The notes beneath the pieces are model-generated. The model did no database searches and had not been told where the DNA came from. It worked only from the letters and a program-made list of their open reading frames with translations. DNA of 64,000 bases from Candidatus Bathyarchaeota archaeon (GTDB lineage: Archaea > Thermoproteota > Bathyarchaeia > Bathyarchaeales > Bathycorpusculaceae). The DNA lies in the NCBI GenBank assembly GCA_963717465.1, contig OY970340.1:1184001-1248000 (forward strand). The letters run 5' to 3'. Made by a program: the position numbers and the translations under genes. This document shows, piece by piece, positions 38,194-50,793 of the stretch (position 1 is its first letter; every line of letters starts with the position of its first letter).

Positions 38194-39559
38194 ATGGGAT
38201 ATCTATTGTGGGAAGTCTTGGAAAGAACTAGAACTGGTCCAATCATGAAAGAAGACGAATTTGAGGTCACATATTTTCCGACGATACTAAAGAAGGTCAT
38301 CCAAGATTACAAGATCAAATGGGATGGCGAGCCAGTAATGGCAGATGCACAGATGGCTGATGCTATTTTTGAAGCTGGTATACAAGTGCTAGTTCAGTGC
38401 GGATTATACTGCAAAGATACTAAACACATAGTTAAATTCAATGAAAATGAACTGAGAGAAGTTGTCAAAACACGAAAGCATGAGGTTGAGTGGGGAACCG
38501 GCAGAGACGTGCTAAAGATGGGTATTAGAGGTCCTGAGGATAAGCAGCATCCATACTGCCTAAATGCGGGCGGAACAATGGGAAGCAACATACAAGAGTG
38601 GAGGGACGCTGTTTATCTCGCTGCTCGTGAACCGACGACAGATGGAATGATGACGGGAATACTTGAGGCGTCTTTTGGTCAGAAGTCAACGTATGCTACG
38701 CCTACTGAGTCGCTTGCTGTTCATGCTGAATGTGAGTTGATGACTGCTGGGGCGCGCGCTGCGGGAAGGCCTGGTATGTTGCTTGGTTTTCCTGAGACTG
38801 GTACGAGTATGGTTGCGTTGATGCAGGCTTTTGATCCTGGTTACTATACGCCTAAGGAACTGTATGATGCCAGTGCATATACTGCAGGACATGAGGGTAG
38901 TCGTTGATAGGCTTAATCTTGCTTACTTTGCTATGCAGCATGGGATTGTTCCGTGGCAGAGTTGTAGTCCTACGCTGTACGCTTATATCAGTAGTCCTGA
39001 GGAAGCGGCTGTTGAGGGAATGGCTCATTCGCTGGGTCAGATGGCTTATGCAGACGGGTCATTCACCCAGGCAATGAACAACACAATTGATAACCTATAT
39101 GTAGGTACAGATTGTTTTTGGACTAATTCAGCGATGGCTTTGGCTGCAGAAAGAAACATAAAGGTTCCTTGGATTTCCACCGGATTAGGATTAATGCAAC
39201 CTATGACTGACGCTGATTGGTATGCAACAGCATGTAGCTGCATTAATGCTTGTATATCTGGCATGGAAGGAATGTGGATGGTCGATGGTGGTTGCCCCGT
39301 TATCGGTGTAAGATTTGGAAGTGAATTCACACGAGCAGCTGCTGGAATAAAAGTAAGCGAAGGGACCAAGATAATAAAAGAGCTCACCAAGAAATTTGCA
39401 CCGGCTATAAAGGTATTTGACATTAGTCAAATAATGCGCAGTCTTTACTTGGACTATGACCCGGAAACTTTGAAACCTAGAAAGGAAACTGTGGATATGT
39501 ACAATAGGATGACGAAAGAGTTTAAAGACATGGGTTTTGACTACCCAACATGGGGTTAA
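38194..39559 (+). CDS. Pyrrolysine-free MtmB-family methyltransferase (EmtA-like), frameshift at ~38854
   Basis: R..TGPIMKEDEF, AD.IFEAG, AGRPGMLLGFPE (no TAG at the Pyl position), YLDYD.ETLKP. Confidence 0.8.
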
Positions 39560-44177: not shown

Positions 44178-44337
44178 ATTTACATCTTTTTGTTAATTTG
44201 AATACTTTAAAGAAGAGGTTATCTCAAAAGAAGTGTTTAACATAATTTTACGTTTCATAAATCCAGTTTGATTAATTATCGCAACTTAAGCGGTTCCAAT
44301 CCCTAAAATATTTAAATCCAAGAGAATAATTGTATTC

Positions 44338-44799
44338 ATGGCTCAAGGCAGGAAAGAAGAACTAAAAAGCGCCGTTTTAGGAAAGAACGTCACAAAATTT
44401 GTTTTTAATCGTCCCAGCGCCAAAATTCTTGAGATATTTCAAAACAGGTACTCAAAACGTGATTATTTCATTAATATTGATATACCCGAGTTTACCAACA
44501 TTTGTCCGTTAACTGGACAACCAGACTTTGCGGTAATTCGCATACGCTACGTTCCCGACGAAAAATGCTTAGAGTCAAAATCGCTGAAAATCTACATTTT
44601 CTCTTATCGCAATTTTCCTGAATTTCATGAAGATTGCATTAACAGAATTTTAGATGATTGTGTAAAGGTATGTGCGCCTAGATGGATGCAAGTATCGGGC
44701 AAGTTTAATGCCAGAGGAGGCATTTCATTCACGCCTGTGGCTGAGTTCACTAAAAAGGGTTTCAAATTGGCTCAGCAGAGCGCAAAATTAGATTTATGA
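44338..44799 (+). CDS. queF: PreQ0 (7-cyano-7-deazaguanine) reductase, unimodular type
   Basis: PEFTNICPLTGQPDFA, ESKSLKIY, FHE, FNARGGI. Confidence 0.88.
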   Translation: MAQGRKEELKSAVLGKNVTKFVFNRPSAKILEIFQNRYSKRDYFINIDIPEFTNICPLTGQPDFAVIRIRYVPDEKCLESKSLKIYIFSYRNFPEFHEDCINRILDDCVKVCAPRWMQVSGKFNARGGISFTPVAEFTKKGFKLAQQSAKLDL

Positions 44800-45254
44800 T
44801 GCTCGCAAGAGTTGAGGATGCAAAGATGAAAAAATCTGAATTCGACAAATATCTCCAAGAAAGGTACAATGACCAAGTAAAATGGTATGACACCAAAGCA
44901 ATCCTTTACAAAAGATTGAATTACATATTCCAAATCCCAACAATCTTTGTTGCAGCAATTATTCCAATATTCGCTTTGCTTGAACAAAAATGGGTAACAG
45001 TAATCCTTTCAGCTACAATGGCTATATTTATCGGAATCCTGAACTATTCCAAATTCGAGGAAAAATGGCATAATTATAGGTTTACATGTGAAAGACTAAA
45101 GAAAGAACTCTTCTTTTACACAGGTAAAATTGACGACTATAAAAATGCAGAAGAACCAGAGAGCTTGTTTGTTCAGCGAGTTGAATCAATTACTTCCGAC
45201 GAACATTCACAGTGGGTCACAATTGAAAAAACCAAGAAGAAACAAAATCAATAA
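44796..45254 (+). CDS. SLATT / DUF4231 2-TM effector
   Basis: YL.ERY.DQ..WYD.KA, 2 TM, W.NYR.TCE.LK.E, FV.RVE.I. Confidence 0.82.
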   Translation: MMLARVEDAKMKKSEFDKYLQERYNDQVKWYDTKAILYKRLNYIFQIPTIFVAAIIPIFALLEQKWVTVILSATMAIFIGILNYSKFEEKWHNYRFTCERLKKELFFYTGKIDDYKNAEEPESLFVQRVESITSDEHSQWVTIEKTKKKQNQ

Positions 45255-45264
45255 GGCGATTTAA

Positions 45265-46254
45265 TTGCTTGTTGAAAAAAAATCACTTAGATCTTTTAAA
45301 ATTGAAGATTCTGGAAAATCATTTGAAACCCCTTTGTTTGTCCCTGCGACATCTAGTACAAAAGCAAATTGGACAGTTTTGCAATATATTGACTTAATAG
45401 AAAACGTCGGGTATCCGTCGTTTCTTGTCTCAGCTTATGATTATTGCAAGCTTGAAAAAAAGCAAAAAGAGGATTTTGAGAAGCTTTTGGGAAAATACAG
45501 AAAGAAAGGCACTTTTTTCTTTTTAGATAATGGTAACTATGAAGCTTATTGGTACAAAGACAAAAAATGGAATCTGGACGGATTAAGAGATGCTTTGGAG
45601 ACTGTTTGCCCAGACTTTTGCTTTTCCTTTGATGTTTTCTGGGAAAAAGACACAAAAACAGAATCATACATCAAAGATACTGTATCGGCTATTGCAAAAA
45701 CAGCAGGTTCGCAAAAAACAGGGTCAACTATTGCATTGTTTCATTCCAGGCCTGATTTATTTCCGAAAGTAGTTAGAAAAGTCGTTGATAGCATTAATCC
45801 CGAAATAATTGCTGTCCCTGAAAGGGAATTAGGATGTAGCGTTTTTGAACGTGCCCTATCAATTAAAAACATTCGAAGTGAACTTGATAAAGACGGAAAG
45901 TTGATACCAATGCATATTCTCGGCACAGGTAACCCACTTTCAATTCTTATTTACACATTGTGTGGAGCTGATACCTTCGATGCCCTTGATTGGTCAAGTG
46001 TATTTATGGACCCAAAAACTTGTCAGCAGGGTCATTTTTCACAGAAGGATTTGTCAACCTGTAGTTGCGAGGCATGTCAATTGAAACAGGTTCCATACGA
46101 TTACCAGGTCATGGCCCACAATCTAATCTTCTATCAAAGATTCTTGGAAAAAATCAAAAAATCTCTTGAATCATGTAAAGTTGATACGCTGCTCAAAGAG
46201 TATCTATCTGACAAAAACGTATTGGAAGTAAAGAAAATAGCGGTATTGAAATGA
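45265..46254 (+). CDS. TGT-like (tRNA-guanine transglycosylase fold) protein, Cap10-like
   Basis: ETPLFVP, LDNGNYE, HILGTG, GADTFD, CSCEAC...HNL zinc site. Confidence 0.8.
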   Translation: MLVEKKSLRSFKIEDSGKSFETPLFVPATSSTKANWTVLQYIDLIENVGYPSFLVSAYDYCKLEKKQKEDFEKLLGKYRKKGTFFFLDNGNYEAYWYKDKKWNLDGLRDALETVCPDFCFSFDVFWEKDTKTESYIKDTVSAIAKTAGSQKTGSTIALFHSRPDLFPKVVRKVVDSINPEIIAVPERELGCSVFERALSIKNIRSELDKDGKLIPMHILGTGNPLSILIYTLCGADTFDALDWSSVFMDPKTCQQGHFSQKDLSTCSCEACQLKQVPYDYQVMAHNLIFYQRFLEKIKKSLESCKVDTLLKEYLSDKNVLEVKKIAVLK

Positions 46255-46991
46255 CTGAACTTTGCTTGATTACTGAAAGAATTGAGAATACTATTATGAA
46301 GGTGTGCGACTTCGTCGATTCACAACAAACAACTGGCTCTTGTTGGAAAAACCTCTGCGAGGAAGAGCTTTGGCCAGAATTGGTGTCCTGTATATTGGGC
46401 AGTAGAGTTAGATATGAGACTGCGAAAGCATGTTCTATCCAGTTATTAAAAACTGGTTTGCTTGATATTTCTACTATTTTGAAAAATCCTAAGCGTGTTG
46501 AAAAAGCAATAACCAAGGAATTAGGCAGACCCATGTATCCGCCAATGAAAGGCCGCCTAGGTTCAAGATAGCGTTACCCGAAATCCAAGTCTAAATTTAT
46601 CGTAGACACCGCGGTTAAAATATACTATGAAGACAAAACTACGATAAAGGATATTCTAAATAGCTCTCATGATGGGATTGAAGCAAGAGCGACGCTGATT
46701 GAAAAATGCAAAGGTATAGGACCAAAACAAGCAAGTCTTTTTCTTAGAAACATAAGTTTTAGCAATGATTTGGCTATTCTTGATTGTCATGTTGACCGAT
46801 ACATGAGATTGCTTCGATTGAGCGATAGTTTGGACTTGATAGACAAGCAGAAAATGCATCCCTATTTTAAGATGGAAAATAAGTTGAGAATATACGCGAT
46901 ATCTAAAAAGAGATCGCTTGCAACTTTGGATATAGGCATTTGGACTGTTATGCGCCTAGTAAAAAAGGAGGATATAGTATGGCAGTTGTAA
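46251..46991 (+). CDS. OGG-like HhH N-glycosylase/lyase (Cap11-like) with in-frame TAG at 46569
   Basis: ELVSCILGS, R*RYPKSKS, KGIGPKQASLFLRN, AILDCHV, LDIGIW all in one frame. Confidence 0.75.
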
Positions 46992-47608
46992 GTTTAGTTT
47001 CTGGTGGAATTGATTCTCTAACTATGTCAAAAATTATTGTTGAACAAGGAGAAGAAATATTACCGATTTTTATTGACTATGGTCAATTAGCTAAAGACAA
47101 GGAATGGGCTGCCTGTCAACTGGTTTTCAAGGAATCTGGCTTGTCTGCCCCAATCAGAATCGACTTAAGCGGTTATGGCAAATTAATGCCGACAGGAATT
47201 ACTGACCCAAAAAAGGAAATACGTGATCAAGCTTTTCTTCCCGGAAGAAATCTCTTATTTCTTGTTGTCGGAAGTTCTTATGCTCATTTCAAAGGAGCTA
47301 GGGGAGTAGCAATCGGTTTGCTTACAGAAAAGTCACATATATTTCCTGATCAGACTGGCAGATTTGTTGTCAATACAAATATAGCTGTAAACGAAGCTCT
47401 GGACGATGATATTACTATATTGACGCCGCTGATTAATTTCTCCAAAAGCCAAGTAATCGAACTTGCTAAACACTACAAACTTCCAATAGAAAAAACATAT
47501 TCTTGTCACTCGGGTAACGACACTTATTGTGGGAAGTGTATTTCTTGCCTGGAGCTTCTCGGTTCAATTGGAAAAGACTTGCCACAATTTAAAGCTAAAG
47601 GTGTTTAA
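46979..47608 (+). CDS. queC: QueC-family PP-loop ATPase, Cap9-like
   Basis: SGGIDS, IDYGQ, PGRNLLFL, FPD, TYSC...CGKCISC. Confidence 0.88.
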   Translation: MAVVSLVSGGIDSLTMSKIIVEQGEEILPIFIDYGQLAKDKEWAACQLVFKESGLSAPIRIDLSGYGKLMPTGITDPKKEIRDQAFLPGRNLLFLVVGSSYAHFKGARGVAIGLLTEKSHIFPDQTGRFVVNTNIAVNEALDDDITILTPLINFSKSQVIELAKHYKLPIEKTYSCHSGNDTYCGKCISCLELLGSIGKDLPQFKAKGV

Positions 47609-47609
47609 T

Positions 47610-48131
47610 GTGGGTGGTTCACCGGTATACAGCGATACGGGTCATGGTGGAGCAACTGATACTGACAAGTTGCAGGATATCGCTCGAAAAGAGCTTGAAA
47701 AACCAGCTCCAGAATCTAGAAAGAAAGTTTTCCTCAGCTTCAAAGGAGAAGATAAGACCTATGTTGACTTATTCCGTGGTCAGGCAAAAAATGAAAATTC
47801 AGACCTTGATTTCATTGACTTTTCGCTCAGAGCACCTTTTAACAGCGAAAACGCCGAGTATATCAAAAGTGGGATCAGACAAAGAATTGAGCAATCTTCT
47901 GTTACAATTGTGTGCTTAACTGAAGACACTCACAAGAGCGAATGGGTGGATTGGGAAATCAAAGAAAGCATAAGGCTTGGTAATGGTGTAATAGGTGTAA
48001 AAATGAAAGATGATTCCTCAATAAAGACACCAAAAGCAATGGAAGAAAATGGTTGCAAGGTGGTCAACTGGAATCACGAAGAGATTAATCAAGCGATGAG
48101 TGAGGCGGATAAAAAGCGCAAAGAACAATAA
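47610..48131 (+). CDS. TIR domain protein (ThsB/DUF1863-like) with N-terminal MGGS extension
   Basis: GTG start 2 nt after the queC stop with an AGGTG SD; VFLSF, SSVTIVCL, SEWVDWEI with catalytic Glu. Confidence 0.85.
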   Translation: MGGSPVYSDTGHGGATDTDKLQDIARKELEKPAPESRKKVFLSFKGEDKTYVDLFRGQAKNENSDLDFIDFSLRAPFNSENAEYIKSGIRQRIEQSSVTIVCLTEDTHKSEWVDWEIKESIRLGNGVIGVKMKDDSSIKTPKAMEENGCKVVNWNHEEINQAMSEADKKRKEQ

Positions 48132-48491: not shown

Positions 48492-49622
48492 TCATAAAGT
48501 CCTTTTTTTGATTTCAAGCCAGACGAGTGGAATTCCTGATAAAAATGAGCCAACAATAAGAAAAACAAAAGTCAAAATAGTGACGTAGTTATTGCTGAGT
48601 TTGAAATATGTCACAATGTCATTGGGGAAGGTGGCTGCTATTCCTATGAGAAGGATTCCAGCGATCATAGATACTATAAGGGAGTAAACTTCAAGTCTCT
48701 TTGACATTAATTTATATGGAAGCTTGATCGAAGGCGTCTCAAAATTCTCATCGGATTCTGTAACAACTATTTCTGAGCTTTCGCTTGTAAGAGTTTCTTT
48801 GGTTTGAAAATCAAAATACTTGGTATATTTGTCCTGAGCCATTGGCAAATCAATCTCTGATGAGCCTACATGGGATATTAATTTATCATCAACGCTAATG
48901 GTAATTTTTTTGTTTGGCTTGTTGTTATGCTTCTGATGATCTGGATTAAAAGCACTCAAAGATACAGCATACGGTCTTCCTTGACTGATTTTAAAAGAAT
49001 GTTCTTCAATGGATAATTGGGACTTGAGCTCCGTTCTGAGAAGAATGTTGGTTCTGAAAAATATCGAATTACTAAATTGTTCTTGCCCTTTCAATCGGGC
49101 AATAGGGTCAGCTCTTGCCAACATTTTGGCTGTCTCTTCCCAAATCTCTTGTTGAGAGTTTGTGCTGTTTTGATTTCCAACTAAAGGGTCGGCGCCTTTT
49201 AACACAAGTTTTTGAAGATATTCATCACTATTTGGAGTGGCTTTTGATAACATTTTTTTTTGACTCAAAATAGTTCGGATATCATCGTTGAATTTCTTAG
49301 TGTCAACCGGATTTACGAAATCTTCCATGCTTAGAATAATCTGATAAGTTACCCCTATCGTAGGTGGTATGATTTCTGAAACTTTGCAACGTCTGATTGG
49401 ATAAAATTCTGCGTTCTGTTTTGAATAATCAAGGAAGATTACGAGACCAGATATATTTTTAGCTTTGTTCAAATTCAATTTAATGTCATCGGATAGCCAT
49501 TTTTCGTCATACTCGACAAATTGAATCAGGCCGTTTGGTAAACTGAGAATCGAAAGAATCTTCTGCCTGAAGTCGGGATAATAGGTTGATTTAAAGAAGA
49601 AAATGATTTCAGGTGTGCTCAT
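48492..49622 (-). CDS. Hypothetical protein with 2 C-terminal TM helices
   Basis: 376-aa ORF, probably co-transcribed with the radical SAM gene. Confidence 0.7.
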   Translation of the reverse strand: MSTPEIIFFFKSTYYPDFRQKILSILSLPNGLIQFVEYDEKWLSDDIKLNLNKAKNISGLVIFLDYSKQNAEFYPIRRCKVSEIIPPTIGVTYQIILSMEDFVNPVDTKKFNDDIRTILSQKKMLSKATPNSDEYLQKLVLKGADPLVGNQNSTNSQQEIWEETAKMLARADPIARLKGQEQFSNSIFFRTNILLRTELKSQLSIEEHSFKISQGRPYAVSLSAFNPDHQKHNNKPNKKITISVDDKLISHVGSSEIDLPMAQDKYTKYFDFQTKETLTSESSEIVVTESDENFETPSIKLPYKLMSKRLEVYSLIVSMIAGILLIGIAATFPNDIVTYFKLSNNYVTILTFVFLIVGSFLSGIPLVWLEIKKRTL

Positions 49623-49641: not shown

Positions 49642-50793
49642 TCAGAGCGGAACCTCACATCTGTATCTTCTTATCTCTGGCTCGCTATAAAAGCTTGGAA
49701 GAACACTTTCATACCACAATTGCGTAACAGTTTTCTGAAATCGCACAAATTTCGGAAACCACTCATCTGGACTTTCGTTATCGTGCCAAGGCAGTTTTCT
49801 TCCTTCTTTAAGGGCAGCGACCATATTTGGCTTCACAGCGGAATACGATTTAATTTGCAGCATGTTTGCCCTCAACGGAAGATTTGTATGAATTTGTTTG
49901 AGCCTACAACAACAAATATTCAATCTTCTTTTTAACTCGTCATTTTCAGCAAAAACCATCGGTATTAAATAGACATATGTGTCTGCCTTAAGTTCATTGA
50001 CCAAGAAATTCAAAACCTCAAATTGTTTTGCGAAGAATTCAGGCTGTGAATTAGTAATCTGAGAAAAATCTTCCGATCCTACTTGTCCGTCTCCAATGCC
50101 TTTCAAGCACCCGACTATCCCAAAATTGTGGTTGCCTATAGTTTCCTTTAGTTCATCCAACACTCTTTCCAAGTAATTGGTTGTTGACAAATTACAATCT
50201 GCCCAAACGTAGACACTGTTTGAAATGTTTCGTTTGTCAAGTTCCCTGTAAACGTCGATTATTAGTTCGGGAACTATAGTTGTTGCTTCTCCCCCACTAA
50301 TCCTAATAACATTCAGTTCCTCAGTGGTTGCCCTAAGTTTTTCGTACTCATCAATAATATCGCTTACTTTGAAGTATCGTCCTCTGCCAGCTTCAGGATT
50401 ATTCAAATCCCTGTCCACATAGCAATAGCTGCAATCATAATCGCAACCGTTGAGTTGGATCGTAAACGTATTGTTGTATTTTCGAGGATCACCACCCATT
50501 TTCTTCGCTGCGCTGTAAGGTGGATTCTGAAACTCTAGTTTTTGAAAACCGCCTTCAAGTCCTAGAAATTTCGGTGACCAGATTTCTGAGGTTGGAACAC
50601 TTGTCCACCATTGTGCATATAAATCTGACGGATCTCTGGGATCTATGTACGTTCTAGTCCGAAAATTTTTTTTAATGTCTTTACTATCCTTTATCTGGAC
50701 TCCTTGAGTAAAATCCGGAACAAAATAGCTGTTCGTAGCTGGGTCTCTCATTTGTTTTCTGCGTTTTGCTGCTATTTCTTCTGGATTTAGCAT
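49642..50793 (-). CDS. Radical SAM protein
   Basis: GCDYDCSYC and IRISGGE. Confidence 0.85.
   Translation of the reverse strand: MLNPEEIAAKRRKQMRDPATNSYFVPDFTQGVQIKDSKDIKKNFRTRTYIDPRDPSDLYAQWWTSVPTSEIWSPKFLGLEGGFQKLEFQNPPYSAAKKMGGDPRKYNNTFTIQLNGCDYDCSYCYVDRDLNNPEAGRGRYFKVSDIIDEYEKLRATTEELNVIRISGGEATTIVPELIIDVYRELDKRNISNSVYVWADCNLSTTNYLERVLDELKETIGNHNFGIVGCLKGIGDGQVGSEDFSQITNSQPEFFAKQFEVLNFLVNELKADTYVYLIPMVFAENDELKRRLNICCCRLKQIHTNLPLRANMLQIKSYSAVKPNMVAALKEGRKLPWHDNESPDEWFPKFVRFQKTVTQLWYESVLPSFYSEPEIRRYRCEVPL

Follow-up and report, generated by a model that had tools for sequence, protein, structure and literature searches.

What is a gene for a TIR protein doing directly behind a gene for an enzyme of the QueC family, and could the TIR protein be a substrate of that enzyme? 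The question is raised by a locus in a 64,000-nucleotide stretch of the genome of a Candidatus Bathyarchaeota archaeon (assembly GCA_963717465.1, contig OY970340.1, positions 1,184,001 to 1,248,000), referred to below as the window, whose coordinates are used throughout. The locus is an operon of six genes, all on the + strand and with coupled or nearly coupled starts, in the order QueF, SLATT, TGT-like (Cap10-like), OGG-like (Cap11-like), QueC-like (Cap9-like) and TIR. We consider it likely that this is a mobile antiviral cassette of the Thoeris type, in which a TIR signalling enzyme would be controlled by helper enzymes of type IV CBASS (cyclic oligonucleotide-based antiphage signalling system). 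Comparison of related loci and structure modelling lend good support to the view that the adjacent enzyme of the QueC family would tag the N-terminal glycine of the TIR protein and that this tag would be read by the TGT-like protein.

The precedent for such control is type IV CBASS, as described in 10.1101/2025.04.06.647259. In that system, Cap9 joins 7-carboxy-7-deazaguanine (CDG) to Gly2 of a CD-NTase, giving the modification named NDG, and the modified tail has the motif M(G/S)G(G/S)GG; a G2D substitution or deletion of the motif abolished defence. The helix that follows the tail docks on Cap9 before it moves to Cap10, the protein that holds the tagged tail.

The TIR Protein Starts with a Glycine Tail

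The elements of the TIR gene are the following.

47597..47603, + strand: Shine-Dalgarno-like AAAGGTG, 6 nt 5′ of GTG 47610, read from the sequence
47610..48131, + strand: ThsB-type TIR protein of 173 aa, with the TIR fold from about residue 38 (Pfam ThsB_TIR, PADLOC ThsB)
47610..47657, + strand: flexible tail rich in Gly, with the start codon (residues 1-16, MGGSPVYSDTGHGGAT; from pLDDT and motif conservation); predicted acceptor, Gly2
47658..47699, + strand: helix of the leader, residues 17-30, predicted to dock on the QueC-like protein (from the model and the co-fold)

The queC-like gene ends with a TAA at 47606-47608, and the frame opened by GTG 47610, one base beyond, runs to 48131; its product begins MGGSPVYSDTGHGG (MGGS start). 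An initial annotation, made from the window alone, had placed the start at this GTG, behind a Shine-Dalgarno sequence and 2 nt past the queC stop; the start and the Shine-Dalgarno sequence hold, the spacing being 1 nt. Alternative in-frame starts are found upstream, inside queC (GTG 47529, TTG 47568 and GTG 47601). In the closest relatives (L045, L047, L048 and L051), an ATG-GGx-GGx start follows an in-frame stop by 1-2 codons. Since the frame of these relatives closes just before ATG-Gly-Gly, a longer N-terminus is impossible there, and GTG 47610 is the start supported by homology. GGAG or GGAGG occupies the Shine-Dalgarno position in relatives. The use of a different start, which the initial annotation had named as a danger to its own proposal, thus loses ground.

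The TIR domain matches Pfam ThsB_TIR (PF08937) over residues 41-135 (6.4e-23) and PADLOC ThsB (4e-18); among solved structures, it matches PDB 8fz9 (5.2e-20) and ThsB 6lhy (5.7e-11). The leader ahead of it, previously described as a Gly-rich stretch of ca. 35 residues, is indeed present (ca. 37-40 residues), and only its first 14 residues, with 5 Gly, are Gly-rich. An AlphaFold2 model built from 21 sequences (mean predicted local distance difference test score, pLDDT, of 78.4) shows residues 1-16 as disordered and residues 17-30 as a helix, which a linker joins to the TIR fold beginning at residue 38; pLDDT is below 50 for residues 1-4 and 6-16. In the alignment of the family (A1), L21 of the helix is invariant and A25 nearly so; W112-V113-x-W115-E116 is also invariant.

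We compared N-termini in 105 related loci, 25 of them from species genomes and the other 80 being the best of 338 metagenome matches. A QueC-like open reading frame (ORF) lies directly 5′ of the TIR gene in 99 of the 105, and 22 of the 25 genome loci show the full order TGT-OGG-QueC-TIR. In 96 of the 99 QueC-linked TIRs, the start codon is followed by G-[GS] (M/V/L-G-[G/S]). The other three are ambiguous: the frame of L002 is headed by GTA-GGG, L054 offers M-E-A or an internal TTG-G-S, and L060 has ATT-G-S. The 73 distinct 16-residue leaders all have G at position 2; at position 3, 69 have G and 4 have S. The family consensus reads MGGGGGGG, and the first TIR strand lies at a median distance of 36 residues. 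Five of the six loci with no QueC directly 5′ of the TIR are cut by contig ends; two of these five show MGG, L025 and L087 are cut or too divergent, and L118 looks degenerate. In the sixth, L015, a TIR of the same clade, devoid of the leader, is followed by SLATT, and there is no QueC.

Other TIR ORFs of the same loci served as a control set. M-G-[GS] was found at the start of none of the 36 readable ones (0/13 and 0/23); several of them start with M-G-L directly into the first strand. Solved ThsB structures likewise begin at the TIR strand, with no leader. Comparison of the N-termini of TIRs encoded next to queC, a check proposed together with the initial annotation, therefore came out in its favour, the Gly2/GGS-type start being present in 96 of 99 against 0 of 36.

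A Gly-rich N-terminus might be a mere flexible linker or a start-codon artefact and carry no modification. The tail of the window protein gives some room for this: set against the type IV CBASS motif M(G/S)G(G/S)GG, its M-G-G-S-P-V fits at positions 1-4 and departs from it at positions 5 and 6. However, invariance of G2 and restriction of position 3 to G or S in all 73 distinct leaders, closure of the relatives' frame just before the ATG, and the lack of a leader in solved ThsB TIRs and in TIRs not linked to QueC all speak against a linker or an artefact, which we hold to be very improbable.

In many loci (L003, L005, L016, L017, L019, L024, L063-L092 and others), a second, leaderless TIR gene (MAK... 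or MGLP...) stands beside the Gly-tailed one.

The QueC-Like Protein Resembles Cap9 and Is Predicted to Bind the TIR Leader

46979..47608, + strand: QueC-family ATP-dependent ligase, Cap9-like (Pfam QueC 6.6e-38; PADLOC QueC 7.1e-31)

The QueC-like protein (209 aa) scores 124.6 bits on TIGR00364, below the cut-off of 150.3 bits for the canonical QueC equivalog, while the housekeeping QueC of a congener, at 197.1 bits, is above it. Its matches in the PDB include QueC (3bl5 and 2pg3) and Cap9 (9nto). In the family alignment (A2), the SGGxDS motif (S8, G9, G10, D12 and S13), the RN loop and the zinc cysteines C176, C184, C187 and C190 are invariant. The segment Y34-G-Q36-LAKDK-E42 has no His and so departs from the YxQxHxxE motif of canonical QueC; it follows the Y-x-Q-(x)5-E spacing that is described for Cap9 (PMC13082051). 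A further invariant element, F122-P-D124-Q, keeps the aromatic residue and the Asp of Cap9 Y115-x-D117 (YxDC), with the Tyr and the Cys changed.

The QueC-like protein and the TIR protein, each with its own alignment, were then co-folded. The interface score (ipSAE) was 0.71 (0.77, 0.61 and 0.71 in individual runs), and the best of three controls gave 0.00; 116 of 157 solved complexes reached that mark, as did 2 of 215 mismatched pairs. Agreement between runs covers at least 64% of contacts, with a partner pLDDT of at least 75. The confident interface joins TIR residues 17-36 to residues 19-25, 111, 131-139 and 144-165 of the QueC-like protein. By our own count on the alignment, residues 19-25 correspond to Cap9 residues 29-35, and residue 111 is two positions away from the counterpart of Cap9 L104. 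In Cap9, M29, L104 and S135 line a cleft, mutation of which abolished defence (10.1101/2025.04.06.647259). Co-folding of QueC with the TIR leader was another of the checks proposed at the outset, and its outcome agrees with the proposal: the leader helix is predicted to dock on the QueC-like protein.

The TGT-Like and OGG-Like Proteins Complete the Helper Set

45265..46254, + strand: TGT-like (Cap10-like) protein (PADLOC TGT 3.9e-27)
46251..46991, + strand: OGG-like glycosylase (Cap11-like), split by one in-frame TAG (C-terminal part, Pfam Ogg-HhH 1.5e-19)
46569..46571, + strand: the in-frame TAG of the OGG-like gene; relatives mostly have Tyr at this column

The best PDB match of the TGT-like family profile is Cap10 (9ntn, 3.9e-18). 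In Cap10, D73/S74, D122 and K154 are reported to read the base and H226/D248 to be catalytic, the transfer target being still unknown (10.1101/2025.04.06.647259). Equivalents of D73, D122, H226 and D248 are invariant in our alignment of the family (A3). About ten genome loci have a TGT-like ORF of ca. 475 aa, extended at the N-terminus by ca. 150 residues. Two metagenome loci, L078 and L114, have the order TGT-QueC-TIR-SLATT with a longer TGT ORF and no OGG-like match; they may be OGG-less or fused.

The OGG-like gene of relatives is one open frame of ca. 245 aa. At the column of the window's TAG, eight of nine aligned relatives have Tyr, encoded by TAT in the three whose DNA was checked, and both halves of the split gene keep conserved motifs. 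The TAG is thus either an assembly error or a nonsense mutation of recent origin.

The proposal that the N-terminal glycine of the TIR protein is modified by the QueC-like enzyme and read by the TGT-like protein, which the initial annotation had put forward, is thus strengthened by a tail that fits the CBASS motif at four positions and occurs on QueC-linked TIRs only, by Cap10 as the nearest solved relative of the TGT-like family, and by the co-fold. The gene set and the conserved tail are observed and the docking is predicted; the chemistry, the sequence of events and the nature of the signal we infer by homology, as follows. Removal of the initiator Met would expose Gly2. The leader helix (residues 17-30) would dock on the QueC-like enzyme, letting the flexible Gly tail reach its active site, where CDG would be activated with ATP and joined to the Gly2 amine, giving the NDG amide. 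The TGT-like protein would bind the tagged tail and hold or prime the TIR, a step that the OGG-like protein would counteract. Upon infection, the TIR would make an NAD-derived signal, and this would open the SLATT membrane effector.

Several observations weigh against this reading. The tail of the window protein (MGGSPV) is less Gly-rich than the CBASS motif M-G-G-G/S-G-G. At the site of YPDC in QueC and of YxDC in Cap9, the QueC-like family has FPDQ, and its profile scores canonical QueC (99 and 90.5 bits) above Cap9 (74.3 bits). The co-fold has no confident contact for TIR residues 1-16, and its passing may partly reflect likeness, because the Cap9-CdnD complex (9nto) has been solved. In the TGT-like protein of the window, the position of Cap10 S74 is Asn (DNG for DSG), with Ser in 16 of 16 others, and Cap10 K154 falls in an unaligned insert and has no aligned column. 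The Cap11-like gene carries an in-frame stop. QueF has no place in the published mechanism. Finally, the source of the substrate is not apparent in the host: its genome, which is 88% complete by markers, so that absences there are not proven, has no PTPS/QueD match, and tblastn with a congener's QueC-QueD-QueE cluster gave no match in it.

QueF Defines a Sub-Type with a Zinc-Motif TGT-Like Protein

44305..44317, + strand: possible archaeal promoter of the operon, an A/T-rich TATA-like box ca. 27 nt 5′ of the queF ATG, inferred by eye from the sequence
44338..44799, + strand: QueF, unimodular NADPH-dependent preQ0 reductase (preQ1 synthase) (Pfam QueF 1.3e-32)
44796..45254, + strand: SLATT/DUF4231 protein with two transmembrane segments, presumed membrane effector (Pfam DUF4231 2.5e-18, SLATT_1 1.6e-12)

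The queF stop overlaps the SLATT ATG (ATGA); blastp finds the SLATT gene in 27 of the 105 related loci. QueF scores 160 bits on NCBIfam TIGR03139 (cut-off 86.9) and aligns with PDB 4f8b over residues 5-146 (2.1e-44), the alignment including CP.TGQPDF, ESKSLK and FHED. We take the Cys of CP.TGQPDF and the ESKSLK segment to be the catalytic Cys and the NADPH site. By score and motifs, then, the cassette QueF is a bona fide unimodular preQ0 reductase, and it is the only QueF in the host genome.

QueF recurs with the cassette in 8 of the 80 metagenome loci (the best 80 of 338), with the catalytic motifs kept in all, and in two gene orders: QueF-SLATT-TGT-OGG-QueC-TIR in L045, L047, L048, L051 and L062, and TIR-QueF in L054, L057 and L058, with SLATT next in L054. 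No QueF was found in the 25 genome loci at E 1e-4 or better. QueF is thus a real and recurrent member of its cassette sub-type. It goes together with a feature of the TGT-like protein. Whereas the solved Cap10 is described as having no TGT zinc site (10.1101/2025.04.06.647259), the TGT-like protein of the window keeps the zinc motif CxCxxC..H (CSCEAC...H) and does not share this loss. The C-terminal part of the TGT-like protein is readable in 69 loci, 10 of which have the motif and 59 of which do not. It is present in all seven QueF loci readable there and in three loci where contig ends conceal whether QueF is present, and in none of the 59 loci without QueF. The cassette belongs to an undescribed QueF and zinc-TGT sub-type. 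A literature search linked QueF neither to Cap9 nor to TIR domains; its co-mentions of QueF and CBASS concern, by title, phage genomics.

Do these features mean that the TIR is not the substrate at all? The QueC-like, QueF, TGT-like and OGG-like proteins could act on nucleic acid, by Dpd-like or tRNA-type insertion of preQ0/preQ1, with the TIR-SLATT pair as a neighbour or a downstream effector. Such a role would suit QueF, which its score and motifs mark as a genuine preQ1 synthase, and the TGT-like protein of the window, with a CxCxxC..H motif that solved Cap10 is described as lacking. It would also suit the QueC-like protein, the only QueC in the genome, whose family profile is nearer canonical QueC than Cap9. 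But TGT-OGG-QueC-TIR order and Gly tail are kept in the 59 loci that have neither QueF nor the zinc motif, the tail is confined to QueC-linked TIRs, and the leader helix docks on the QueC-like protein in co-folds whose controls are null; moreover, the QueC-like protein is under the equivalog cut-off, and the host has a separate TgtA for its tRNA. We regard action on nucleic acid with the TIR as a bystander as improbable.

Another thought, to which we give a small chance, is that the sub-type with QueF runs a deazaguanine chemistry unlike that of type IV CBASS. QueF might clear or convert free preQ0 so that the tagged tail, and not a free base, fills the TGT pocket, or the TGT-like enzyme might still exchange a base in nucleic acid, coupling this to the TIR. 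Dependence of tagging, and with it of the arming of the TIR, on salvaged or virus-made 7-deazaguanines is conceivable because the host shows no CDG pathway. If this were true, a viral DNA-modification pathway would become the infection signal.

The Cassette in Its Host Genome

The host genome is archaeal (its 16S scores 1474.8 bits on the archaeal model) and is a single contig of 3.05 Mb. Homology of the locus to its closest metagenomic relatives, whose TIR proteins are 82-85% identical, spans 44291 to 48119 and ends at both of these positions, while the contigs of the relatives extend several kb beyond each edge. Since homology is limited to 44291-48119 with the flanks available, the six genes travel as a unit. 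Neighbours of the cassette in the relatives include a transposase, a Schlafen/AlbA_2 protein, Cdc6-type ATPases and an Eco57I-type methylase. The cassette was not found in the 18 congeners searched, in which QueF was found in 0/18 and no QueC was more than 33% identical to the cassette QueC.

Two genes on the - strand follow the cassette in the window and are not common to its relatives. The first, just 3′ of the cassette (48492-49622), encodes a protein of 376 aa that has membrane helices at its C-terminus and matches no family; the second (49642-50793) encodes a 383-aa radical SAM protein with weak viperin/NrdG-like matches. The latter was considered as a QueE and rejected: it scores 19.9 bits on TIGR03365, is on the opposite strand and lies outside the region shared by the relatives.

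The cassette QueC-like gene is the only QueC found in the host genome. Searches for QueE with TIGR03365 across the genus retrieved generic radical-SAM matches only and were uninformative, the best short candidate in the host being NrdG. The archaeosine tRNA transglycosylase TgtA is present (563 bits) and is the only TGT-family match there, with no bacterial-type Tgt; QueA is also absent from the host genome. Within the genus, 13 of 18 genomes gave a QueC match and 7 of 20 a QueD match. TgtA in a genome where no canonical QueC, QueD or QueE was detected suggests that the host salvages preQ0.

It is fair to ask whether a cassette of the deazaguanylation type could be decaying or idle in this host, having been imported recently, with its Cap11-like gene broken and the host supplying no CDG. 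The interruption of the OGG-like gene where a Tyr codon is conserved, with no pyrrolysine decoding system found, points that way. So do the lack of a match to QueD or, by tblastn, to the congener's QueD/QueE/QueC cluster, the failure to find the cassette in the 18 congeners, and the presence of a second interrupted gene, a frameshifted MtmB-like one, 8 kb away. On the other hand, the remaining five genes are all intact, keep their conserved motifs and have coupled starts, and deletion of Cap11 left type IV CBASS defence unaffected (10.1101/2025.04.06.647259). The TAG could itself be an artefact of base errors in a single-contig assembly; the genome is incomplete by markers, and bases could be salvaged. 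Decay or idleness is, to our mind, less likely than not, but a possibility to be reckoned with.

The MtmB-like gene (monomethylamine methyltransferase family, 38194-39556) had led us to consider read-through of the OGG-like TAG as pyrrolysine. This was rejected: ARAGORN found no tRNA with the anticodon CUA in its genome, and no PylS is above the cut-off there (best score, 31 bits against 178). The MtmB-like gene has a frameshift near 38900 and no in-frame TAG at the usual pyrrolysine position; it looks like a non-Pyl relative of MtmB that is broken or mis-assembled. ARAGORN also called two tRNA-SeC (anticodon TCA) in the host genome (G000:C1:845695-845779 and 2829638-2829723).

Relation to Known Defence Systems

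The initial annotation had viewed the TIR as a new class of target for QueC-type enzymes. This claim of novelty falls, since Thoeris operons with cap9, cap10 and cap11 have already been reported, with a mechanism for ThsB proposed to be similar to that for CD-NTase (bioRxiv 10.64898/2025.12.03.692087). The same preprint gives AlphaFold3 models, which are predictions only, of ThsB-Cap9 (ipTM 0.62) and ThsB-Cap10 (ipTM 0.79). Its passages on these operons make no mention of an N-terminal Gly motif of the TIR, and the words QueF, QueC and TGT are absent from its main text. Going by its ThsB-type TIR, its Cap9-, Cap10- and Cap11-like genes and the effector in the operon, the cassette of the window is Thoeris with type IV CBASS helper genes. 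It shares with the operons described in the preprint a ThsB TIR and an effector next to QueC-, TGT- and OGG-like genes, and differs from them, as they are described there, in the QueF of the operon, the zinc-motif TGT-like protein, the archaeal host and the interrupted Cap11-like gene.

Type IV CBASS, as described (CdnD with Cap9, Cap10 and Cap11), has the same QueC/TGT/OGG trio, commonly with an effector of the 2TM type; its substrate has a flexible M-G-G-(G/S) tail and, behind it, a helix that docks on Cap9 and Cap10, much as the leader helix of the cassette is predicted to dock on the QueC-like protein. The cassette has a TIR in place of the CD-NTase, FPDQ in place of YxDC, a QueC-like protein of 209 aa against 191 aa for the Cap9 chain, the zinc motif and QueF. 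It is not type IV CBASS, as none of the six operon proteins matches a CD-NTase family in Pfam or PADLOC.

Type VII Thoeris is described as ThsB with the SLATT effector ThsH and a cyclic ADP-ribose (cADPR) signal (bioRxiv 10.64898/2025.12.03.692087). The pairing of a ThsB-type TIR with a SLATT membrane protein is the same here; that system, compared by its description and not by a ThsH sequence, has two genes and no QueC, TGT or OGG helpers. In QatABCD, too, as described, a QueC-family enzyme (QatC, acting on QatB) is repurposed for protein deazaguanylation in defence. Pfam and PADLOC searches found no QatA ATPase, QatB or QatD TatD nuclease among the operon proteins, and the QueC-like protein does not match the NCBIfam QatC model at E 0.001 or better. 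As to QueF, the cassette protein is like the unimodular enzymes of the B. subtilis type (PDB 4f8b) in its aligned catalytic Cys, ESKSLK and FHED, and unlike them in being encoded inside a defence cassette, in a host genome with neither QueA nor a bacterial-type Tgt.

NDG has so far been reported for one CD-NTase, with related work on QatB. Should TIR proteins be tagged in the same way, the modification would be a general switch for nucleotide-signalling immunity, archaea included. The tail, present in 96 of 99 QueC-linked TIRs and in 0 of 36 others, offers a simple and testable rule for picking candidate substrates. The QueF and zinc-TGT sub-type is the more useful lead. This sub-type combines an enzyme acting on a free base with a nucleic-acid-type feature kept in the TGT-like protein, and it may reveal what the tag is handed on to or competes with.

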